From positions 1-32,000 of the forward strand of contig CAWGIZ010000001.1 of assembly GCA_963822835.1 (NCBI GenBank): a stretch of DNA of 32,000 nucleotides, in the 5' to 3' direction. A model generated the notes under the pieces. That model did no database searches and was not told the DNA's origin. It saw only the letters and a list, made by a program, of their open reading frames with translations. A program made the translations under genes and the position numbers. Positions 1 to 10,384 of this stretch are shown piece by piece (position 1 is the first letter of the stretch; every line of letters begins with the position of its first letter). The stretch comes from an uncultured Alphaproteobacteria bacterium. Lineage in GTDB: Bacteria > Pseudomonadota > Alphaproteobacteria > CAVTAV01.

Positions 1-442
1 ATGTCTCGATCTGATTGACGGGTCGATTGCCGATTACCGGGAAGACATGCTGCGTTAGCGTGTTCAGCCACTGGTCGGCATGCTTGCCGTTACGCCATCC
101 GGTTTTGTGTTCTTCGTGGACCTTGCGCGCTGCCTTTTCGAAGGTGGGCACGACAACAGAAGCGCGTCGCCGTTCCGCAACGGGATCGCCACCATCACGG
201 GCGACCTTGCGAAGGGAGGCCGCACGCTCACGCGCTTCTGCCAGAGACACCAGCCGCGCACTTCCGAGTCCGACATCCCGCCGTCGCCCCTGAGCGACCG
301 TACGAAGCATCCAGCGCTTCGCGCCTGAGGCATCAACGACGAGATAGAGGCCGTTGCCATCGGCATATCGGCCAGCCTTGCTCAAAGTTCGGACCTTGAG
401 CGCCGTTAGCGCCTTGTCCGGATGGCTACCTGACTTTCGCAT
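1..442 (-). CDS. int: Tyrosine recombinase/integrase, P4-type (N-terminal Arm-DNA-binding/DUF4102 region). 5' part only; the gene continues beyond the left edge
   Basis: This was translated by hand because the ORF track omits it (it has no stop in the window). The ATG is at 442-440 (minus). The product reads MRKSGSHPDKALTALKVRTLSKAGRYADGNGLYLVVDASGAKRWMLRTVAQGRRRDVGLGSARLVSLAEARERAASLRKVARDGGDPVAERRR...GWRNGKHADQWLNTLTQHVFPVIGNRPVNQIET. The LT..KV..L...G.Y.DG.GLYL.V...G.K.W..R signature is typical of DUF4102-type integrases. Confidence 0.85.
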   Translation of the reverse strand, partial: MRKSGSHPDKALTALKVRTLSKAGRYADGNGLYLVVDASGAKRWMLRTVAQGRRRDVGLGSARLVSLAEARERAASLRKVARDGGDPVAERRRASVVVPTFEKAARKVHEEHKTGWRNGKHADQWLNTLTQHVFPVIGNRPVNQIET

Positions 443-864
443 TCGAACTCACAACCCACAAAACATCCCACATTATCAGTCGGATTTTGCCGGTCGTCCT
501 GGGACGCTGTCAATCAATGAATCTTCTTTAACTATCTATTGCAGCATGAAAAAGTGGATAACGTTGGATGCCATTGGACCCAGAAATGGCAGACACCCTC
601 TCCGCCATTCTCAGTCCAAATAACAAACTCCTGCGGCCTGAGCCGGGCGCAAAACGGCGCGGCTCCGCCCCGCTTCGAACGGAGACCTGTGCACTGCAGA
701 CTTCGGTGGATTACGCGGAATTGCATTCTCCGTAGGTCAAAATTCTCCGCCGCTGCGCACTAAGTGCCGCGTCCTATCGCCCTTATAATCTAGCCCCTTC
801 AGCGCGTTACAAATTCCTCGCCGAACGATGGTCTCGCAGAAAGTTTGGGAAGTGATCGAGACGA

Positions 865-886
865 GGCACAAACATCGGTTTGTGCC
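865..886. other. Perfect hairpin (9-bp stem GGCACAAAC/GTTTGTGCC, 4-nt loop ATCG) in the noncoding spacer between the patatin gene and int
   Basis: Read directly from the sequence. No adjacent U-tract on either strand, so it is not a canonical intrinsic terminator. It could be a processing site, a protein-binding site, or a weak terminator for the minus-strand operon. Confidence 0.3.
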
Positions 887-1150
887 CACAGACGCTATTT
901 AAGCGGTCGCCCAGACCTCTGACTGCAGCGCGGCCTGTTCCAGAACTGACCTGCCCTATTTGGGTAGTCCACCTGTCGAGTTAGAGTCCGGTGGTTATGG
1001 TCGCCCTGGTGGGCTGCCCGAAACGCAGCGTAGGGCAGGCCGGCAAGGCAAGGCAAGATGGCTTCCGGGGACCTGACATGCGTCGGCCGTTGACGTGCGG
1101 CATCCACGACTAACTTGACAGTGCCAACCAACTACCATCCGAAAAACAAA

Positions 1151-2317
1151 TTAGGCCTGGATCAAATTCGAAAATTGATCGCCCTGCACTTGGGTGCTTG
1201 CAGCCTTCCGACCTATTTCCAACAGCTCTTCCACGGTCTCCGGGCTGTCGATTTGCGCGAGCCGGGCGACTCCCTTGGGAGGCAGGTCGAGACCAAGATA
1301 TTGCTTCAGCCAACGCAGGCTCAGTTCTACATTGTACCTTTGGTAGGTGAAGGCCAACCGCCCGTCAAAATTATCGTTGGCGAGATTACCAACCTCCGCG
1401 TCGATATGCCAAGGTGTCTTCGTTCGCGACATCCACTGCATCAAGGTCTGCACCAGGCCGTCGCTATCGGATAGCAGTGACTGAACGGCACTCAAAGCCA
1501 GACCGGCGCCGGTCGACGCCGACCAAGAACCGCTATCGAATGTCTGCTGATACTTTCCCGTGCCCACCGAGGTGATCGTCAGCTGATCGGCGCCGAATGG
1601 CCAGTTGAAGCCATAGCCGGAAATTCCGGCCAGCATGAGCATTAGCAAGGCCGGATTGTTGTGCGGACTTACGCCTCCATCCACGAAGGAACCTTCTACG
1701 CCCGGCGCGACCGCGATCACCTCGGGCTCAAAGTAGGTCGGGGCCGCCGTACTCGCGCGAATGAGGCTCGCCAGCGGAAGTTCCTTATTCGGTGTGTAGG
1801 ATGCGTCATTGCCGTCGAAGAATTTGCCTCGAGGATTATTGTGAAAGACCCAGACGCTGTTCGTATCCAGACGTTTGGTAACGATCGCGAGGCCAGTCCT
1901 CAGCTTTTCGGAACCAAGCAACTCCTCGCCAACTTGTTGTCTGACGGCTTGCATCAAAGGTTCAGCAGGAAACTTTGGCGCCAACAGCCCATAGAACCAG
2001 AACCAGTTTCGATCGCCGAAAGCGAGGGCAGAAAGTTCCCGATAGATCGTGATGAGTTCCGAGACGGAGTAGCCGAGAGCAAGCCCCGTCGCGATGATCG
2101 AGCCTGTGGATGTTCCACCAATCAGGTCGTAATAGTCGCTCAATCGAAGGTCAGGCTGGTCGAACTCCTTCGCCAGCAGTGCCTCAATCCGTTCCAAGAA
2201 GGCGAGTGAAATGATTCCTCTCACGCCCCCACCATCAAGTGCCAATATTCGCTTGGGGCCAGATCCAAAGAGGTGATGTTCGAGCGAAGGGTTGGCCATT
2301 GTCGGACTCCCGTTCAT
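1151..2317 (-). CDS. Patatin-like phospholipase (CapV-like candidate effector)
   Basis: All three catalytic signatures are present: the oxyanion hole ILALDGGGVRG, the nucleophile elbow GGTSTGS (GxSxG), and the catalytic Asp in FVDGGV. The ATG at 2317-2315 overlaps the upstream TGA (2316-2314) as ATGA, which suggests translational coupling. Alternative starts are 2347 (longest ORF) and 2299 (preceded by GGGAG). Confidence 0.85.
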   Translation of the reverse strand: MNGSPTMANPSLEHHLFGSGPKRILALDGGGVRGIISLAFLERIEALLAKEFDQPDLRLSDYYDLIGGTSTGSIIATGLALGYSVSELITIYRELSALAFGDRNWFWFYGLLAPKFPAEPLMQAVRQQVGEELLGSEKLRTGLAIVTKRLDTNSVWVFHNNPRGKFFDGNDASYTPNKELPLASLIRASTAAPTYFEPEVIAVAPGVEGSFVDGGVSPHNNPALLMLMLAGISGYGFNWPFGADQLTITSVGTGKYQQTFDSGSWSASTGAGLALSAVQSLLSDSDGLVQTLMQWMSRTKTPWHIDAEVGNLANDNFDGRLAFTYQRYNVELSLRWLKQYLGLDLPPKGVARLAQIDSPETVEELLEIGRKAASTQVQGDQFSNLIQA

Positions 2318-4854
2318 AAACCCGGAGGGTTCTCCATATCCGCCCATCCGCGAGACGACAAAGTGACCGCTTGGCCTGAAGATGGGTCAATCTGAATAGT
2401 CACGGCCTCCCGTTCGCCAGCCCAACTACCAAGAGTTCCGTTCTCACAGAGATCTTGTCTCAACACCAAAGTATCGCTGGTTCCTCCCGTCAGACGCGGC
2501 CCACCGGAGCGACACGCGGCTATCAGATACGTCGCTCGGCGAGCGATGTAGTCTGCGGCTTTCGCGTAGCCGCTCTGACGGTTTTTATTGTCATCGTAAT
2601 TGAGGTTCGGATCGGTCAAATCGATAACCCAACCGGAAAGGCGCTGCACAGCCTTCTTCTGATTAGTCCATGTATTCCATCGAGAAGCAGATATCTCCCT
2701 TCGGACGGTCTTGCTACTCGATTGCTCGCTGGACCAGAGCGCGCCGGCGGCAGACGCTCCGCCATCCCAAGAGTAGCCCTCTTTAAAATGAGGTTCGTAG
2801 TCGTCGAGCATGAACGACTCCGGCACTCCCTCGACGCCGAGCAACCGATGCATCTTTTTTTCCCGTTCCAGGTAATCAAGCGCGGCCTGAGTCATAACGT
2901 AATCGGAGCCAGGGGCCAGCGGCGAGACAAGCGTGTAACACGCGTTCGGAAAACGCGCGCAGATCTTGGAAAGTACGTCCGTAGCGACGCAGTATGCAAT
3001 CCTCTCTGCTTCCTTCAGCCTGATCGCGTTATGGCCGATCAGACCGATCCAGATGTCACGGCGAATGACGTTTCGATCTGACGTCGTGTCATCACGCCGA
3101 TCGAGGATCTTGTCGTCCAGCAATTCGATCTGCTGAAAGTCATAGTCCTGAGCCGTCTTATCGAGTTTGTCGAAGCCCACGAGGTTATCGTGTATCCGCC
3201 GTTCATTATTACGTTTTGCGCCCGGCAGCCATCTCCAACCATCGATGCGCCGGTCAGCGCACCAGGACTTGTGCTCCAGGCGCGCCAACTGCTCCATTGC
3301 TGTCTTAAAATCGCGAATATGAGCGGCCGCCGCTGCCTTCAGCGAGAAGCCCGGTGGCACGTACCAATCGAGACTGGCCAGTTTCGGCTTGATGTGGTCC
3401 GCAGCGCGCCTGTTTGCCTGTCGGTAGGTCTCCGGCAAGTCGTCCCAGGACTGCGCACTCTCGGCTCTCTCCTGAGATACGGTGCTCTTGAACTCCGCCG
3501 ACCGGGCCGCCTGGTAGGAGTCGTGAATATTTTTGGCGATCCCTTCCAGCGGACCTTCGAGCAGATCGAGAGTGCAGAGTTCGGCGACTGTTCCGAAGGG
3601 TGCAATGATCGATGAGAAATAGGGCGTGAGATCGTCGCGGCAAATGATCCCGAGATCTCCGCTAAGCGATCCGGCGCGAATATAGACGGGTGCCTTCCAT
3701 CGCCCATTGATCTGCATGGCATCGCGAACCCTCAATGCATGCTGAAGCGTTGCGCTGGAACTATCGGCCGTGACTATCACCGCGGTAACAGCGTGTTCAC
3801 CTTCGATGTCCGCCATCACCTTGTCGGTGAGGCTGTTGATCGCGGTGTCGAATTCGAGAAAGCGAACCGTGCCCAATCGGCCAAGCCCCGGGTACGCCAC
3901 ATCGATGTCAGGGTGGATACGGCGAAATCGCTGCTCGTCGTGAGCAGCGTCAGGCACCAGCACGGTCATGCGCGGCGCGGCGAAGTCCTTGTATATCCCG
4001 ACTCGCATGAGCTGAGCGGCGACGTTAATTGCGTAGTCGTCGAAACCCACGACGACCAGATGGATGAGTCGCTGGCCGCGCAAGTCCGCTACGGTATAGA
4101 GCGGGTGGTCCCAGAAGAACTTTCTCGCGGCCAGAGCGGGCAGGCTGAAGGGGATCAGATCCGTACCGTTCTCTCGCCGCTTGACACCATCGGAACTCGA
4201 GAGCTTGCGCCAGAGCTCGGCGTCCCTGACCGACACGAAGACTTTGCGTGCGGTCGAACGCTGGTGATCCTTGCATATCGAACGGATGGCGAGCGCCGCC
4301 TCAAGATTAGCGTTGTCGTCGTCGGTTACAATGACGGCGCCTTTCGCCTTTTCGACTGCCGCGGAGTGGAGCACCTTGGCATTCCGGCAGTCGCCAGCCA
4401 CGAATGGCACTTTGTGCCGCCGGCAAAATGCAGCGAGCGCGTCATTGCCCGCACTGTCGATGGCAACGACCGCATGCCCGCCCGCCACGAGACTGTCGAC
4501 GAACGCCTTGCCTCGCTCACCCAGACCGCAGACGATGTAGTGATCTTTCTGGCGGCTGGCCCTCCAACCTTCAATCCGGCTTCCCAGAAATTCAAGGACG
4601 ACGCCAAGAACGGCCGAGAGCGTTGCGAGCGGGGCAATGACAAGGCCCAGCTTCAGGAAGAAATTGGCCGACGAGTAATCGCCGCCGGGACGATCGAGCT
4701 TGTAGGCGAGATACGTGCGATAGAGGATCTCAAGCCAGTCGACTTTTTCGGGTTGCGCGAGGGCAATGTACCAGCCGACGAACGTCAGAACGCCACCGGC
4801 AATCGCCAGAGTAGCGACGGCCAAAATTAAAACGCGCTTGGTGGAGGACGGCAT
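2314..4854 (-). CDS. Membrane protein: 2 TM helices + TrkA_N/RCK-type NAD-binding Rossmann domain(s) + two RyR-type repeats + C-terminal SLOG/YpsA/DprA-like domain
   Basis: 846-aa ORF. TM helices: VLILAVATLAIAGGVLTFVGWYIAL and FFLKLGLVIAPLATLSAVLGVVLEFL. GxGxxG motif IVCGLGERGKAF followed by the acidic VVAIDS, then a second degenerate Rossmann (IHLVVVGFDDYA). RyR-like repeats: IAKNIHDSYQ...SWDDLPETYRQANRRAADHIKPKL and LARLEHKSWCADRRIDGWRW...RIHDNLVGFDKLDKTAQDYD. The C-terminal ~250 aa carry SLOG-type motifs: IGLIGHN, LVSPLAPGSDYV, TGGTSDTL. Confidence 0.7.
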   Translation of the reverse strand: MPSSTKRVLILAVATLAIAGGVLTFVGWYIALAQPEKVDWLEILYRTYLAYKLDRPGGDYSSANFFLKLGLVIAPLATLSAVLGVVLEFLGSRIEGWRASRQKDHYIVCGLGERGKAFVDSLVAGGHAVVAIDSAGNDALAAFCRRHKVPFVAGDCRNAKVLHSAAVEKAKGAVIVTDDDNANLEAALAIRSICKDHQRSTARKVFVSVRDAELWRKLSSSDGVKRRENGTDLIPFSLPALAARKFFWDHPLYTVADLRGQRLIHLVVVGFDDYAINVAAQLMRVGIYKDFAAPRMTVLVPDAAHDEQRFRRIHPDIDVAYPGLGRLGTVRFLEFDTAINSLTDKVMADIEGEHAVTAVIVTADSSSATLQHALRVRDAMQINGRWKAPVYIRAGSLSGDLGIICRDDLTPYFSSIIAPFGTVAELCTLDLLEGPLEGIAKNIHDSYQAARSAEFKSTVSQERAESAQSWDDLPETYRQANRRAADHIKPKLASLDWYVPPGFSLKAAAAAHIRDFKTAMEQLARLEHKSWCADRRIDGWRWLPGAKRNNERRIHDNLVGFDKLDKTAQDYDFQQIELLDDKILDRRDDTTSDRNVIRRDIWIGLIGHNAIRLKEAERIAYCVATDVLSKICARFPNACYTLVSPLAPGSDYVMTQAALDYLEREKKMHRLLGVEGVPESFMLDDYEPHFKEGYSWDGGASAAGALWSSEQSSSKTVRREISASRWNTWTNQKKAVQRLSGWVIDLTDPNLNYDDNKNRQSGYAKAADYIARRATYLIAACRSGGPRLTGGTSDTLVLRQDLCENGTLGSWAGEREAVTIQIDPSSGQAVTLSSRGWADMENPPGL

Positions 4855-4918
4855 CTGAGACTACCAACGGGGTGGAATGGAGCGACCAAACGATGACGCA
4901 GTCTCCATCACAAGAGAC

Positions 4919-5545
4919 TCACTGGATCTTGGAGATCAGTGGAAGATTTCCCGAAGCGCCGCAGCCGAAAGAACCGGACATCGTTTTCGAATCCGCAATC
5001 ATCAGTCGCAGATCGCAGTTACTGGCTTTGATAATGAGGCCACCCGGCACGAATTGGCCGTAATTCCATCCGTTATAGGAACTGTTTGTCTTGATCTCGC
5101 CGTTGTCAGAGATTTCGATACGGTTCAGCAAGATGCTAGGGGCAACCCTCTCGAACAGTTTTTTCTGTGCATCGGTTGGCCGGTCGGGGAGCTCCACTTC
5201 CGCAACGATGCTCGTCCGGGACTTCAGCCACATTTTGAGCGCGGCAGACTGCATGTCCTTGTCGCTGCTGCCGAACCCTTCCTCTAGGGAAATTCGTCGG
5301 ACGATGTCGTCATCGCTTGCCAGCCCGGCCTCCAGAGCTGCGAGCCGCTCGATGGGATCGTCGCTTCGCAAGAGATCACGAAAGGATTTCAGCTCGGCCG
5401 CCCGCTCGGTTATCGCCTTCGCGGTCGACTGAGCATGTACTGATGGCGCGTCCTGGCAAACCGCGACGAAGAGCACCGCAACCGTCACGCCGGCAATCCC
5501 AAAGATTCGCTTATTCAAAGCCTTCATGACCCACCTTCCCATCAT
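4919..5545 (-). CDS. Secreted/periplasmic protein of unknown function (signal peptide, HEAT-like helical repeats, Cys-containing beta-rich C-terminus)
   Basis: The ORF begins 9 nt downstream of the TIR gene stop. The likely true start is the ATG at 5527, preceded by GGAAGGTGGG. Signal peptide: MKALNKRIFGIAGVTVAVLFVAVCQDAPSVHAQ. Repeats resemble DDPIERLAALEAGLASDDDIVRRISL. I recognise no known family. Confidence 0.6.
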   Translation of the reverse strand: MMGRWVMKALNKRIFGIAGVTVAVLFVAVCQDAPSVHAQSTAKAITERAAELKSFRDLLRSDDPIERLAALEAGLASDDDIVRRISLEEGFGSSDKDMQSAALKMWLKSRTSIVAEVELPDRPTDAQKKLFERVAPSILLNRIEISDNGEIKTNSSYNGWNYGQFVPGGLIIKASNCDLRLMIADSKTMSGSFGCGASGNLPLISKIQ

Positions 5546-5554
5546 GTGCCGGCG

Positions 5555-6538
5555 TCAGAACGGCCGCGTCGCATCTTTCGGCAAATATCCGATGCGTCCG
5601 TCATCCAGATGTACTTTCGTCCATAGGCTACTGTTGAAGTCTTCGACCTTGACGATATCGCCGGCCCTTAATCGGGCAATCGTGTTTGATATCGCTGACG
5701 GCAAATCCTGTACCGAGATATCGCGTTCAACCCGATGCGTGATGAGCGTGGCGGCATGTTGTGCCACTTGCGTTACCGCTTCTTGCTTCACGGGCGCCGC
5801 AGGTTTTGATTTGGAATAGGCAGGGGCATCGATGGCCAAGTCCTCGGGAGGCGAAGGTCGCGCGGGCTCGTCTTTGATAGCAGCCTGCTTCGAGATAGCG
5901 CTGGGCACTGCGGCGGCCGGCGTGGTTGTGCCTTCCGGCAGGGCTACCTTCGCCGGCACTGCTGGTACCGTTTCGGTCGCCACCTTTTCGACAGAACCGG
6001 ATCGTCCCATTACAAAGTAAGCGCCGGTGCCGCCAATACCCAGGAGCAGAACAAGTGCTGCCGCGTAGATCGGCCATTTCGAGCGATTTCCGCTCAGACG
6101 GATCGGCGGCGTGCGGACTGTGTCTTGACCATCGATCGTATCCGCCAAGTGATCGAGGTGATATTCCAGATCGCCTCGCCAAGTGTCGATCCAGTGGCTT
6201 GTGGAGATGAAGAGTTCGAGGCCGGGCGACGGCGCGACATCCTCGATGCGGACGGGGTAGACCGGCCGGCCCTTACTGTAGGCGCGCTCCACTTCCGCCT
6301 TTACGAAGCGCGATAGATTCAACTCCTTAGAAAGCAGGACGACGAGTGTCTTGGAGTTCTCGATACCGTGGACGATTTCTTCGGCATATTCATGGCCGGG
6401 CCGGACGTCCCGTGGGGCGACCCAGCACCTCAGCCCTTTTCGTTCCAGATGTTCGCAGACCGTATCTGCAAATCGGGCGTTCTCCTTGGCGTGACTTATG
6501 AACGCCGAGTAACGCCAGTCTTTGCCAGCCCCATCCAT
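5555..6538 (-). CDS. TIR domain - single TM - Pro/Ala-rich linker - SH3b domain protein
   Basis: N-terminal TIR_2-like sequence: YSAFISHAKENARFADTVCEHLERKGLRCWVAPRDVRPGHEYAEEIVHGIENSKTLVVLLSKELNLSRFVKAEVERAY. A Glu occupies the position of the catalytic glutamate motif (S..v.aEve.A). TM helix: WPIYAAALVLLLGIGGTGAYFVM. The C-terminus ARLRAGDIVKVEDFNSSLWTKVHLDDGRIGYLPKD is typical of bacterial SH3_3. Confidence 0.8.
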   Translation of the reverse strand: MDGAGKDWRYSAFISHAKENARFADTVCEHLERKGLRCWVAPRDVRPGHEYAEEIVHGIENSKTLVVLLSKELNLSRFVKAEVERAYSKGRPVYPVRIEDVAPSPGLELFISTSHWIDTWRGDLEYHLDHLADTIDGQDTVRTPPIRLSGNRSKWPIYAAALVLLLGIGGTGAYFVMGRSGSVEKVATETVPAVPAKVALPEGTTTPAAAVPSAISKQAAIKDEPARPSPPEDLAIDAPAYSKSKPAAPVKQEAVTQVAQHAATLITHRVERDISVQDLPSAISNTIARLRAGDIVKVEDFNSSLWTKVHLDDGRIGYLPKDATRPF

Positions 6539-6652
6539 GCCAAGTCCAACTAGCCGCTCTAGTTTGGCGAGAAACCCCTCGCTAAAAGTGTTACAAAGAC
6601 TCGTCTTTAGCGCAAGTTTATCAGCCCTGAGCGACGCAATATTCTGGGGATG

Positions 6653-7099
6653 TTACTTGTTCGGCAGATACAACCAGCCCCCGTCATTCCGAAGAAAGCG
6701 TCCCTGCCCCGTATTCCCCCCACCAGTCAGCTGCCGCAAGGCACCTTGCGCGAAAGGACTGTCCGAGGCAAAGCCCAGCACGAAGTCGCAGACATAGCCC
6801 GGTTGGCCTTCCGCCTTCTCACAACCGAGCTTTCTGAACTGAGTGATTTCGAATGACAGGCTGCACTTACCGCCGCCTGCACCACAGAGGGCAAGGCACT
6901 GCATCGCAAGTAAAGGGTCGTTATTGAATTCGCGGCGTTCGCACCGTTTCCCTAACTCCTGATAATTCGCGTTTACATTTGCAAAGGTCGCTTCGATCGC
7001 CTTCCTCATTTCCTTATCAGACGGCTCGCGATCGCCGGAGCCACATGCCGCGACACAAAGTATGGAGGCGATCATAAAGAAGGCGGATAGCGACTTCAT
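6653..7099 (-). CDS. Cys-rich lipoprotein of unknown function
   Basis: ATG at 7099 preceded by GAGGA. Signal peptide and lipobox: MKSLSAFFMIASILCVAAC|GSGD. The mature part contains 8 Cys (including the lipobox Cys). The longer 167-aa ORF (start 7156) has an unlikely basic leader. Confidence 0.6.
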   Translation of the reverse strand: MKSLSAFFMIASILCVAACGSGDREPSDKEMRKAIEATFANVNANYQELGKRCERREFNNDPLLAMQCLALCGAGGGKCSLSFEITQFRKLGCEKAEGQPGYVCDFVLGFASDSPFAQGALRQLTGGGNTGQGRFLRNDGGWLYLPNK

Positions 7100-7215
7100 T
7101 TCAGGATCCTCAGGCGTTATCTTTCGTCGTGTACCTGAGGGACGTTGCCCAGACAAAGCGTCCGACGCCTGGAAAAACTATCGGGACCAGCATCCCCCTT
7201 TAGTATCAACATAGC

Positions 7216-7242
7216 ATCGTTTTCCATACGCACGAAAACGAT
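7216..7242. repeat. Perfect 9-bp inverted repeat ATCGTTTTC-N9-GAAAACGAT in the AT-rich spacer
   Basis: Read directly. It lies about 120-140 nt upstream of the lipoprotein start and has no flanking T-run. Operator or weak terminator candidate. Confidence 0.35.
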
Positions 7243-7672
7243 TACTCCAGAAGGACTTATTCTAAAAACAAGACCCAAGTGAAGTTAATGGCAAAGCCAA
7301 TCTATGGTTCAGTAGAACGCCTGAGTGTGCAGCCAAGGAGGTCGGCCAACTCAATAGTTTCCCACGGCGTTACTGCTCTGCCAGAACCGACTTCTAACAC
7401 TTCGGAAGGTCCTGCAATCATCCTGCCTCCTTGAAATGTTTGATTCCAGTTACCTTCGCTCCTTTTGTCTAATGGCAGTTTGGCGCCCTCGTCCCGAATA
7501 TTTGACGGTCGGTCCATGAATGCCGAGCGTATCGTTTCGCAAAGGTTTAATTCGCACTGGCTACTAAGACCGCTCCGGGCGGGAATTCCGGAAGCTATAT
7601 ATTACCGAGGCCGTTTCTCGCGTGGTGCCGCTCCGACCCCAGCCCCAGACAATCATGTGAAGGCGGTACGAA

Positions 7673-7696
7673 AGCCCCCGACCTGTGCCGGGGGCT
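7673..7696 (-). terminator. Probable intrinsic terminator of the G8/beta-helix gene
   Basis: Read on the minus strand: AGCCCCCG-gcacaggt-CGGGGGCT followed by TTTCGT. It has an 8-bp GC-rich stem and lies about 24 nt after the stop at 7720-7722. Confidence 0.55.
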
Positions 7697-7719
7697 CTTA
7701 CTCATAAGACAGGACCTGC

Positions 7720-10384
7720 TTACCGGCTGACCTGGACGCTGGTTCCGCCGGCACCAGGGCCGGCGATGCGGGCGCCTTCGCCGTTGGAGACAACCTTGAC
7801 CCAGAGCGCGTCCTTGCCCTTGTAGTACGAGGTGTCGCTGGCCTTGCGCAGCGCGTCCAGGCTGTCCTCCGGCGCCCCCGAGGCCGCAGTGGTGAATCCC
7901 GGCAGCTCGAAGATCACCCACGAGCCCTTTTCCATTTCGCTGAGGCGCAGGTCCACGGACGGCCGTTCTGTGCTCACCTTGACCTCGGTGCCGGCGCGTA
8001 CGTTCGTTTCCCCGGCCATGGTGAACTCCTTGCCATTGCGGCTGAGAACGACCGGCGGCTGAGGCGGGCCGCTGGGCCGGCCAAAAAATGGTATGCGGGG
8101 CCCGCCGCCACCCGCCGCTGGGCCAGGGCCGCGACCGGGACCAGCTGCCGCCGGGAGGGCGGCCGAAACCGGGGAACCCGCCGCCGGCGCCGGGAGTGTT
8201 CACAGCCAAGCGTCCGAAATCGCCCTTGCACACAGCGGCATTCCAGGTCGGCTTGACCTCACAGGTCTTGTCGATGGCGATTCCGTCATTTTCGTCATTG
8301 ATGAGAATGAAGGAGTCCGGGACACCGGTGACCGAGCCGTCCAGGTCGTGGAACACCGAGGTCTTATAGCTCCCATTGCCGTAATCGTCGTTGCTCCACT
8401 TGTGCTCCATCGGCGGGAAATACACGGGCTTGGCGTTGATGAATTTCGCGCGCTTCACCGTGTTGTTGGTGCTCATTCCGAAGCTGGTATACAGCAGGTA
8501 AGAGATTGCTCCCGTCTTGCGGGTGGCGTTGTCCTGGAAATTCACGAAGGTGTCGTTGTCCAGGTGATGAAGGTAATCGTAAAACTCGTAGCCGCGGATC
8601 GGGAAATCCGGGAGTCCGGGCTCCGGCAAGCTGCGGCCGTAAGCTTTTTCCGTCGGCGTTGTGGGGTTGCCGATATTGTCGCTCTCGCCCACGAAACGCG
8701 AGTCGACGACCCGTGACGTAAAGGGGGAGCGACCGAGGTTGCCCGACGCATGCGTATAGCCGATCGCGTTGTCGGCCAGCTTCAAGTTCTTGAATGTGTC
8801 CATTTCTCCGCGGGTCCACATTCCGCTGTTCCGGTTCTTGTAGCTGGTGAAATCCTCGATGACCGTCTCCACGATGGGGCTGTTCGCGTCAGCGGGATTG
8901 GCGAGAGCGATATGCCCGCCGGTCCTGAAATGGCCGTCGGGCTGAGGGCCACGATCGGACATGAAGCCGTCGAAGTTTGAATGGGCCGTGTTGCCCCTGA
9001 ACTCCCGCACCTGCATACGGCGTGGCCAGTAGTTGTCATCATGATGCAATCCCGTCGGATGCTGCGGCAAGGCGTACCAGAAGCCCGTCGCCTCGGACCC
9101 GGCGGCCACATTGTCCCGGTAGGTATTGTCCGGATTGGTGATCCAGAAGCTCGACGCCGTGTTGTCGGACGGAATCAGGATATCCTTGGCGTCCTGGCCG
9201 GCCAAATTGAAGTTCTTGCCGCCCTCCACGCCGAACGGGCCGAGGTCCGTTGGAACGCAGGGTTTGCCGTCGGGATGGCACTTGGTGAGGATCGCCAGGT
9301 TGTGGATAAACTGGTTGCCGTGCTCGACGGCGTCTTCGAGGAAGAAACAGTGACCCACATTGTTGTAGGTCACATTGTTTGCCACCAGCACGTCATTGGT
9401 GCCATGCACGGTCACGCAGCGGCTGTAGGTGTCGTGAATCGACGAGTTCTGGATATATTGCCCCTTGGCGTCGCCGATCAGATGCCAGTGGATGGGGTAG
9501 CGGGCCAGATGCATGTTCTGCCCCATGTGATAAAGCTCGACGCCGGAGACGTACATCTTGGACCCGGCCATCGCCATGATATGCCCGCCGAAATAGGTCT
9601 TTTCGGAGTCGGCTGAAGACTGGATCTTGATGTTCCGCGTCAGCATGCCGACTTCGCCGCGCTCGTCGACGCCATAGGTGATTTTGCCGAAATGCATGTA
9701 CTTCAACGGCTTGTCGAGGGTGAGCGCGTTTCCGTGAATGGCGGCGATGGTGCGCTCCTCCGCCTGGTGGGGATCGAAATCGGTTGACGCAAGAACGATC
9801 ACGTCACCCTTGCGCCAGCCGGCGGCATTCAGGACTTTGATCTTGGAACTGCCGGCCTTGGCCGTGCTCGCGAGCTTGGTCCAGCTGTTCGTGCGGTCGC
9901 CGTGCAGGTTCAACGTCCCGAGCAGCAACATGATCCCGCGGTCCCCCATGGTATTGATGTCTTCGTTGGGGACGTTGTCGGTCAGGGTGATTGTCGCCTT
10001 GTGCGTGTAAGGCTTGGCTTCGCTGCCGATGTCCAGCTCGCCGCCCGCCACATAGATCCACTCCGTTGCCAGATCGAGATCGCGATCGTCGGAGAAGCTG
10101 AGCTTGCCGTTGATCGTCAGACTGCGCAGCGCCGGCGGACTGACGTCGAGAACAATGTCCTTGCCCCGGTCAATCGTCACCGCGTCTCCCGCGCCCGGCA
10201 CCTTCCCGTCGGGCCAGGACGCCGGATCGGACCACCGCGACCACGTGACCGCCGAAGAGGGTGCCTGGGCGGGCATGTCCATATGGGCGTGGTCTTCCTG
10301 AGCATCGGCGGCAGCCCCCAGGCCGAGCAGGAAGGCCGCAGGAAGCAACAAGGCAAGTAGAGCCAGGCGAGATTGTTTGTGCAT
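7720..10384 (-). pseudogene. Secreted G8-domain / right-handed beta-helix (PbH1) protein, interrupted by a 1-nt frameshift in a Gly/Pro-rich linker (pseudogene or sequencing indel)
   Basis: Signal peptide: MHKQSRLALLALLLPAAFLLGLGAAADA. G8 signature: WSDPASWPDGKVPGAGDAVTIDRGKDIVLD...INGKLSF...VAGGELDIGSE. After ...DFGRLAVNTPGAGGGFPGFGRPPGG (about 8140-8155) the main frame turns into Arg/Gly/Pro junk. Another frame reads GPGRGPGPAAGGGGPRIPFFGRPSGPPQPPVVLSRNGKEFTMAGETNVRAGTEVKV... through ORF 7720..8019, which ends just before the terminator. Confidence 0.7.

Follow-up and report, generated by a model that had tools for sequence, protein, structure and literature searches.

A recurrent pair of genes for a TIR protein and a channel-like RCK-RyR-SLOG protein as a candidate variant of Thoeris-type signalling

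A cassette of four minus-strand genes lies near the beginning of contig CAWGIZ010000001.1 of an uncultured Alphaproteobacteria bacterium (assembly GCA_963822835.1), within the 32,000-nucleotide stretch of DNA that was analysed here as a whole and is called the window below. In operon order, the cassette encodes a TIR protein of 327 amino acids (aa), a predicted secreted protein of 208 aa, a membrane protein of 846 aa, for which we use the working name BIG, and a patatin of 398 or 388 aa, depending on the start codon (Table 1). An earlier sequence-only reading of the window had proposed that the cassette is a defence system resembling Thoeris and CBASS, and the coordinates, strand and spacing that it gave for the four genes agree with the list of open reading frames (ORFs) of the window and with the sequences of the gene junctions. 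What the first two sections describe, namely how the genes are arranged, which folds they encode, the conservation of catalytic and pocket residues and the adjacency of BIG to TIR and to patatin genes, was established computationally.

Table 1. Features of the cassette and the adjoining integrase (TM, transmembrane; AF2, AlphaFold2; residues in brackets)
Feature	Position in window	Strand	Basis
TIR-TM-SH3b protein, 327 aa, predicted signal generator	5555..6538	-	TIR_2 9.5e-23 (Pfam)
Cytoplasmic TIR domain	~6134-6511 (10-135)	-	Pfam; catalytic Glu82
TM helix of TIR protein	6008-6064 (159-177)	-	hydropathy only
SH3b match in periplasmic C-terminal part of TIR protein	5576-5701 (280-321)	-	SH3_3, weak
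Secreted/periplasmic accessory protein, 208 aa	4919..5545	-	N-terminal hydrophobic signal-like segment (14-32), hydropathy only
BIG, putative effector/sensor, 846 aa	2314..4854	-	Pfam TrkA_N + RyR, AF2 model, Foldseek
TM1, short pore-type helix and TM2 of BIG	4585-4833 (8-90)	-	hydropathy + AF2 model
RCK1/TrkA_N of BIG	4165-4551 (102-230)	-	Pfam TrkA_N 5.8e-16
RCK2 of BIG	3565-4164 (231-430)	-	AF2 model, Foldseek
Tandem RyR Repeat12-like module of BIG	3106-3552 (435-583)	-	pocket H528, W531, R548, H555, D572
SLOG domain of BIG	2350-3069 (596-835)	-	motifs GLIGH 604, LAPGSD 646, GGTSD 790
CapV-like patatin phospholipase, 388 aa	1151..2317	-	Pfam Patatin 1.6e-27; alternative in-frame start 2347
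P4-type tyrosine integrase, N-terminal part	2..~454	-	Arm-DNA-bind_3 1.1e-19, Phage_int_M 5.4e-13 (Pfam, six-frame translation)

The four proteins of the cassette

The TIR, TrkA_N, RyR and patatin domains that had been assigned to the cassette from the sequence alone were all recovered by Pfam, and the SH3b match in the TIR protein is weak and below threshold (SH3_3, 17.1 bits, the cut-off being 27). The TIR glutamate was likewise read correctly as intact: in an alignment with B. cereus ThsB, Glu82 (SRFVKAEVE) falls opposite the catalytic Glu85, and this residue is invariant in all nine TIRs encoded beside BIG homologs. For the window TIR, PADLOC produced only weak generic matches. The PADLOC check that had been suggested for the window was run with the 2023 models, and neither BIG nor the 208-aa protein is matched by any of them.

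Hydropathy puts the TM segments of BIG at residues 8-26 and 69-87. In the full-length AlphaFold2 model, built from a 64-sequence alignment with a mean predicted local distance difference test score (pLDDT) of 92 and a predicted TM-score (pTM) of 0.90, residues 4-32 form TM1, residues 40-50 a short helix and residues 65-100 TM2, and two Rossmann-type domains follow. A Foldseek comparison of the model with PDB returns GsuK (E 5.4e-9, prob 1.0; 529-544 columns on full-length chains of ~547 residues) and, further, the TrkA gating ring, full-length MthK (2.8e-6) and Slo1, and because of these matches the N-terminal half of BIG is modelled as a GsuK-like pore followed by a tandem-RCK gating module. 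The label "2TM" given to this protein in the sequence-only reading was thus right about the two TM segments and too narrow for the rest of the structure. The K+ selectivity filter (TVGYG) was not found in BIG, the filter loop being hypervariable and GYG being absent in the 45 homologs displayed, and BIG, if it conducts at all, is judging from this loop unlikely to be K+-selective. RCK1 carries a GxGxxG nucleotide motif (GLGERG at 110) with the acidic D133 closing beta-2; the motif is less conserved, G112 being present in 47/64, G115 in 43/64 and D/E133 in 47/64 homologs. GsuK is gated by NAD+/ADP (PMC3510474).

The RyR family (PF02026) is matched by BIG well above its cut-off (4.4e-9; 36.9 bits vs 27.4). 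Residues ~520-576 align with Repeat12 of RyR1/RyR3 and with Bacteroides RyR-like proteins (6UHI 2.6e-8, 5C30, 6UHA, 3NRT), and residues ~440-500 constitute a degenerate first RyR repeat (IHDSY…WDDLPETYRQANRR). Two phage counter-defence proteins that target Thoeris signals, both from 2026 preprints, provide a functional reference for such domains. RyDEP cleaves 2'/3'-cyclic ADP-ribose (2'/3'cADPR) via an H75/D117 dyad, with W78 and H100 touching the ligand (PMC13232231), and RyR Tad (vB_PatP_CB1 gp68) binds 3'cADPR with a dissociation constant of 43 nM, as well as 2'cADPR and cADPR, its ligand residues being H129/W132, K147/H154 and K170/D171 (bioRxiv 10.64898/2026.06.04.730250); mutations of these phage pockets abolish binding or cleavage of 2'/3'cADPR (PMC13232231; bioRxiv 10.64898/2026.06.04.730250). 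In our alignment, H528, W531, H555 and D572 of BIG occupy invariant columns together with H129, W132, H154 and D171 of gp68, R548 stands opposite K147, and the pocket pattern matches H75/W78/H100/D117 of RyDEP. Among the 64 full-length homologs, H528 is kept in 63, W531 in 64, R548 in 63, H555 in 57 and D572 in 62, which ranks the pocket residues among the most conserved positions of BIG, while the RCK1 GxGxxG glycines reach only 43-47/64. Since phage Repeat12 domains bind or cleave 2'/3'cADPR and the same residues are near-invariant in BIG, the RyR module is no weaker a candidate for the sensor than SLOG; the sequence-only reading had recognized the presence of this domain and treated it as a passive label, and the latter view does not stand. 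A tblastn search of phage genomes with the window RyR segment gave zero matches, and a Bacteroides-type RyR query was required to reach the phage RyR proteins.

Beyond residue 576 of the window BIG, Pfam finds nothing, SLOG included, and a word-indexed protein search with BIG returned only 13 relatives. A profile of residues 582-846, on the other hand, was searched against 1.84 billion proteins and collected 695 representatives with E<1e-3. The full architecture of TM segments, two RCK domains, RyR and this C-terminal domain is present in ~90 of the best 150 of these 695 representatives, and others of the best 150 are stand-alone proteins of ~200-250 aa or TPR-S/cyclase or STAND-like proteins with the domain at the N-terminus. 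The loops typical of SLOG, namely IG..GH after β1, (T/S)PLAPGxD after β2 and PGGTxE before the last helix, are kept in 134 members. Relatives match Pfam YAcAr (best 2.4e-6; 27.7 bits vs the cut-off of 28.2), YpsA and DprA, all of them SLOG-clan families and all below threshold, and any competing fold family matched at most one member. A model of the isolated C-terminal domain (pLDDT 77, pTM 0.80) was compared by Foldseek with BFVD, where it matches a DprA-like protein (E 1.9e-5, TM-score 0.73), six proteins named "YspA cpYpsA-related SLOG", one DUF2493 and one Rossmann-fold nucleotide-binding protein, mostly with prob ~1.0. A sequence profile of the SLOG family gave zero matches against PDB. 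The BFVD structural matches, the motifs and the sub-threshold Pfam matches lead us to assign the modelled C-terminal domain of BIG to a YAcAr/DprA-like branch of SLOG and not to the ThsA type. The SLOG-like character proposed earlier for this domain is therefore retained on account of BFVD and the motifs; in the comparison with ThsA that had been suggested, hhalign of the family against B. cereus ThsA SLOG was not significant (prob 0.2). In ThsA, SLOG is the sensor of 3'cADPR (10.64898/2025.12.03.692087). Outside BIG, the same SLOG-type domain is found at the N-terminus of TPR-S + adenylate/guanylate cyclase proteins of ~820-850 aa (P0078, P0080, P0087; L025) and in the STAND-like ATPase P0155, and it seems to be a mobile module, either sensory or enzymatic.

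The BIG and patatin genes overlap by an ATGA at 2314-2317 (GGT TTA TGA / ATG AAC). Counted from the Met at 2317, the patatin has GGGVRG at 29, GTSTG at 68 (Ser70) and DGG at 213, so the motifs GGGxRG, GxSxG and DGG are intact, as had been noted before. Its best PADLOC match is the model of the CBASS "Effector phospholipase" (2e-45), and the protein, with 110.6 bits, stays under the cut-off of 200 for NCBIfam CBASS_lipase. Upstream of BIG, a gap of 64 nucleotides (nt) separates its start from the stop of the 208-aa ORF. The latter begins with ATGATG (start 5545) 9 nt past the TIR stop, and another ATG with a better Shine-Dalgarno sequence lies at 5527, 27 nt past this stop; 5527 is the start used in public annotation (P0283), and the 202-aa product to which it leads is the more likely one. 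No family match for the 208-aa protein was found in Pfam, NCBIfam or PADLOC. Two close homologs exist among 5.8 billion proteins, both on tiny contigs, and a weak one (E 2e-7) occupies the equivalent position between the TIR and BIG genes of locus L024.

Homologous loci and genomic surroundings

The loci that we compared were all gathered through BIG homology alone and include few independent ones; a metagenome scan added just 6. A TIR gene adjoins BIG or sits within two genes of it in 7/10 SLOG-bearing lineages (Table 2). The BIG proteins of these seven TIR-linked lineages are 25-42% identical and their flanks are unrelated; the TIRs of the window, L002, L006, L010, L020 and L022 are mutually 31-37% identical, and the TIR encoded immediately upstream of BIG in L023 belongs to the ThsB family (PADLOC ThsB1 2.6e-16). 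A patatin gene adjoins BIG in four lineages (65% identity in L001, 44% in L022 and 36-38% in L011-13), TIR, BIG and patatin occur together in two, and no locus other than the window has all four genes. The conserved core is TIR + BIG because TIR is linked in 7/10 lineages, patatin in four, and a homolog of the 208-aa protein is present in one other; the 208-aa protein and the patatin are accessories outside this core, and the patatin is probably a second, optional effector. Of the co-occurrence of the cassette in unrelated genomes, on which the sequence-only reading depended, the recurrence of the TIR-BIG pair thus held and the conservation of a four-gene unit did not.

Table 2. Gene arrangement in the SLOG-bearing lineages
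Lineage	Genes with or beside BIG
Window lineage	TIR, 208-aa protein, BIG, patatin
L002/L010/L020-21	TIR(TM) divergent from BIG
L005 (Pseudomonas fluorescens HK44)	773-aa TIR-repeat protein upstream of BIG
L006	261-aa TIR upstream of BIG
L022 (TARA)	TIR-CHASE2 divergent from BIG + convergent patatin
L023	TIR-TGT, Ogg, QueC, ThsB-like TIR upstream of BIG; nSTAND1-WD40 downstream
L024	BIG, 200-aa secreted protein, then 455-aa TIR(TM)
L001	patatin (65% identity) + nSTAND1-TPR; no TIR
L003	no TIR
L004	no TIR

Short homologs that lack SLOG (L011-13, L028, P0013) have a TIR neighbour in 0/3 lineages, and L011-13 have a convergent patatin. By our own count of this small sample, TIR adjacency in 7/10 SLOG-bearing vs 0/3 SLOG-less lineages corresponds to a Fisher P of ~0.07, which hints that TIR linkage tracks the presence of SLOG.

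Neighbours of the conflict type are found at several loci: the integrase in the window, nSTAND1 NTPases in L001, L023 and L028, and an IS66 transposase in L005. The nSTAND1 genes, with TPR or WD40, are directly beside BIG in three loci that are unrelated to one another (L001 11739-15578; L023 7500-12414; L028 9625-11560). In L023, a TIR-TGT fusion (PADLOC TGT 1.7e-23), Ogg-HhH, QueC and the ThsB-like TIR stand in a row upstream of BIG (1282-4496), possibly as a module of the 7-deazaguanine type that is coupled with TIR signalling. The 773-aa TIR protein of L005 (4685-7557) contains internal tandem repeats that are 60-83% identical, and a fragment of the IS66 transposase lies just upstream. A gene for a secreted protein of ~125 aa followed by one for a secreted M48 peptidase is located near BIG in two distant loci (L001 15734-17720; L022 152-2619); the M48 proteins of the two loci are 26% identical (E 1e-35), and that of L022 is fused to SH3_3/SH3_4.

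The proximity of the cassette to an integrase, also pointed out in the sequence-only reading, is real, as the N-terminal part of a P4-type enzyme is encoded at the very start of the window; the gene runs off this start and belongs to the context of the cassette, outside the system proper. The GC content is 0.55-0.58 over positions 1-7500 of the window and 0.60-0.66 across most of the remainder. The idea that the window contains an attachment site in a tRNA gene or some Rfam element had to be rejected, the tRNA gene scan and the Rfam scan of the window both being empty, and a scan for promoters and terminators gave no information, its counts being the same as in shuffled sequences. The ~680 bp that separate the start of the integrase gene from the stop of the patatin gene (470-1150) contain no convincing ORF, tRNA or Rfam match and could be the regulatory or attachment region of the island. 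On the other side, 114 nt upstream of the TIR gene and on the same strand, a 167-aa lipoprotein-like ORF (ILCVAACGSG; 6653-7156, minus strand) without a family match may belong to the operon as its fifth gene or have no connection with it. Further to the right are genes for a G8/CEMIP β-helix protein, a tannase, CcmH, a redoxin, an ankyrin protein and cytochromes, none of them defence genes. The last ~200 residues of the 929-aa G8/CEMIP ORF (7595-10384, minus strand) are Arg/Gly-rich and nonsense-like, especially at ~8050-8250, and the ORF 7720-8019 in a neighbouring frame encodes a normal-looking protein C-terminus, which suggests a frameshift near a G-rich run, due either to a sequencing error or to a pseudogene.

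Proposed mechanism and its rivals

For the production of a signal, the domain that binds it, the activity of the channel, the trigger and the anti-phage role, we infer the following chain of events. A membrane-anchored TIR would be activated, the trigger possibly acting by way of the periplasmic part with SH3b and of the periplasmic ~200-aa protein encoded alongside, and Glu82 of the TIR would convert NAD+ into a signal derived from ADP-ribose (ADPR), most simply a cADPR isomer. This signal would bind the cytoplasmic part of BIG, either at the RyR Repeat12-like pocket or at SLOG or at both, and the binding would act on the tandem-RCK gating module and open the GsuK-like 2TM pore, which has no K+ selectivity filter. 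Depolarisation of the membrane would then stop growth or abort the infection. As an optional second effector, the CapV-like patatin, whose translation is coupled to that of BIG, would degrade membrane lipid, and the RyR pocket, in which the His/Asp dyad is retained, might in addition hydrolyse this signal and so reset the system. The mechanism put forward in the sequence-only reading, in which a TIR-generated signal is read by the SLOG-like module of the membrane protein, survives in part: its domains and the recurrence of TIR with BIG were found, and its four-gene unit was not. On balance, we consider it somewhat more probable than its negation that the pair is a Thoeris-like TIR second-messenger system in which an ADPR signal made by TIR gates a membrane-depolarising channel, an effector class for which we found no description.

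A number of observations weigh against this interpretation. The number of independent loci is small, no relatives were found in the IMG/VR viral contigs that were scanned, and three of the ten SLOG-bearing lineages (L001, L003, L004) are without a TIR gene within 8 kb. A family scan of the neighbour ORFs found no other recognizable defence gene in the window, and the pair of L002/L010/L020, instead of lying in a defence island, is surrounded by metabolic genes whose synteny is conserved. The partner TIRs mostly have a TM helix and a periplasmic domain (SH3b, CHASE2 or a domain of ~290 aa without assignment), a layout that is unusual for the ThsB of Thoeris and fits an envelope or extracellular cue. 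The loop in which a K+ filter would be expected is hypervariable and GYG-free, which leaves conduction by BIG a prediction. As for the C-terminal domain, besides the non-significant alignment with ThsA SLOG, Foldseek found no significant PDB match for the isolated model (best E 8e-3, TM-score ≤0.3); TRPM4 is at rank 6 of this non-significant list.

Several of these observations would be expected if the pair served a non-immune form of transmembrane signalling, the chief rival explanation, which we regard as possible though rather unlikely. In that case, a receptor-like TIR would sense an envelope, osmotic or extracellular cue, the NAD-derived messenger would regulate ion flux through RCK, the patatin would remodel the membrane, and the cell would survive. 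Such a role suits the TM and periplasmic domains of the partner TIRs and the metabolic synteny just mentioned, the co-encoding of a periplasmic protein of ~200 aa in two loci, the secreted M48 peptidase/SH3 genes near BIG in L001 and L022, and the fusion of the same SLOG domain to TPR-S and adenylate/guanylate cyclase elsewhere; RCK channels, moreover, are normally homeostatic, and GsuK is NAD+/ADP-gated (PMC3510474). It is harder to reconcile with the CapV-like patatin, the integrase, insertion sequence and nSTAND1 neighbours, the patchy distribution and the low-GC island, all of which typify conflict systems, with the ThsB-type TIR that is the partner in L023, and with a filter-less pore, which is better suited to a leak effector than to a homeostatic K+ channel.

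It is improbable, in our opinion, that the system senses depletion of NAD+, with TIR being a plain NADase, RCK1 (TrkA_N) reading the fall of NAD+ or the rise of ADPR, and RyR and SLOG being accessory. Although the GLGERG motif at 110 and the acidic D133 are present in RCK1, and GsuK, the closest structure, binds both NAD+ and ADP (PMC3510474), the RCK1 motif is less conserved (43-47/64) than the near-invariant RyR pocket and the SLOG loops, and TIR adjacency that tracks SLOG (7/10 vs 0/3) would be left unexplained. That the genes are independent neighbours on one mobile island, where a stand-alone TIR gene for an NADase toxin or for defence would lie by chance beside a K+ channel of the usual kind and a lipase without relation to either, as three BIG lineages without a TIR neighbour and a four-gene set unique to the window might suggest, is highly improbable and disfavoured by the TIR linkage in seven lineages with BIG proteins only 25-42% identical and with unrelated flanks, by the relatedness of the partner TIRs as a group, and by the ATGA overlap that joins BIG and patatin.

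Returning to the second-messenger interpretation, we tentatively put forward a more specific version of it, whose chances we rate as clearly below even: a receptor-like TM TIR makes a cADPR-type messenger that opens the RCK channel via the Repeat12-like pocket, with or without the participation of SLOG. If true, this axis between TIR and a RyR-domain channel would correspond, in prokaryotes, to the regulation of animal ryanodine receptors by cADPR, which may even have evolved from it, and bacterial TIR signalling would acquire a topology in the style of Toll-like receptors. TIR signalling would gain a ligand-gated RCK channel with two different ADPR-type sensor modules and a class of TIR proteins resembling transmembrane receptors. 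The axis would also explain the RyR-domain sponges of phages as mimicry of, or competition with, the host sensor. It is the RyR link, more than the addition of one more Thoeris type, that constitutes the chief interest of the system: whether cADPR acts directly on ryanodine receptors, and via which domain, is a long-standing question of animal biology for which a small bacterial model would become available, and experiments are feasible since the cultured Pseudomonas fluorescens HK44 (L005) has the TIR-BIG pair.

Comparison with known systems

Residues ~1-430 of BIG have the fold of GsuK, MthK and TrkA, in which each chain contributes TM1, a pore helix, TM2 and a pair of RCK domains (E between 5e-9 and 1e-5 in Foldseek), and the GxGxxG nucleotide site of RCK1 is present in BIG as it is in this group. 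Unlike RCK K+ channels, BIG has no TVGYG filter, extends for ~400 further C-terminal residues (RyR + SLOG) and is linked to TIR and patatin genes. The patatin of the window has the fold and the Ser/Asp catalytic motifs of CBASS CapV, but CBASS needs a CD-NTase, and the partners of the window patatin are TIR and the RCK/RyR/SLOG protein; in scans with Pfam, PADLOC and NCBIfam, a CBASS cyclase was found neither in the cassette itself nor in the neighbouring genes that were covered.

Phage RyDEP (DyoEdafos gp78), RyR Tad and animal Repeat12 belong with BIG to the same Pfam family, PF02026. They and BIG have in common the ligand-contact pattern of His, Trp at +3, Lys/Arg, His and Asp, with the second His at +25 and the Asp at +42 in the known proteins vs +27 and +44 in BIG, and the His/Asp dyad that underlies the gcADPR glycosidase activity of RyDEP is retained. 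RyDEP and RyR Tad are phage proteins, whereas the RyR module of BIG belongs to the host and forms part of a channel-like protein; its repeats are in tandem in one chain, whereas the phage proteins are homodimers, and ligand binding by BIG is predicted.

Among Thoeris systems, Yirmiya et al. describe types V-XI and ~29 putative effectors, including "ion channel", "SLOG-Patatin" and "4TM-SLOG" (bioRxiv 10.64898/2025.12.03.692087). The words RyR and TrkA are absent from the text and from the supplements searched, which cover part of Table S1, and the present TIR clade could appear in that table with a different effector label; a literature search found no paper that ties TIR to a TrkA/RCK-RyR-SLOG protein. 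The SLOG-Patatin and 4TM-SLOG candidates are also TIR-adjacent and combine SLOG with a lipase or TM helices (Table S2 of the same report). Judging by their descriptions there, they differ from the present system in being single proteins, whereas here SLOG is carried by a 2TM-RCK-RyR protein and the patatin is encoded by a separate gene; the examples of them that were tested gave no defence in E. coli. Type X Thoeris (ThsB + ThsK) likewise pairs TIR with a predicted ion-channel effector. We rejected the assignment of the cassette to type X: ThsK (L018:3298-3987), which adjoins a TIR 99% identical to the verified TIR of Bacillus sp. BH32, has 229 aa, lacks any Pfam domain and is unrelated to the BIG family (hhalign prob 0.2), and the type X TIR falls into the ThsB/DUF1863 cluster and not into the clade of the present TIRs. 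Plasmid homologs of the type X TIR, also considered as a source of ThsK, proved to be type II (Macro) systems.

The similarity to Thoeris as a whole lies in a two-gene core that recurs, with a TIR retaining its catalytic glutamate (in the window, Glu82 of the TIR_2 domain) beside a SLOG-bearing effector whose SLOG fold and RyR pocket are putative signal-binding sites, and it is strongest at L023, the locus with the ThsB-family partner. The differences concern both genes. ThsA of type I Thoeris is SIR2-SLOG, whereas BIG is a channel-like RCK protein with RyR, and Pfam, PADLOC and NCBIfam found no SIR2 match in the cassette; the SLOG of BIG belongs to a different branch from that of ThsA; the BIG-partner TIRs are mostly of the TIR_2 type, anchored in the membrane and equipped with periplasmic domains; and a patatin is often added, unlike in Thoeris. 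The system is best classed as a variant of Thoeris-type TIR signalling with a previously undescribed channel-RyR-SLOG effector.

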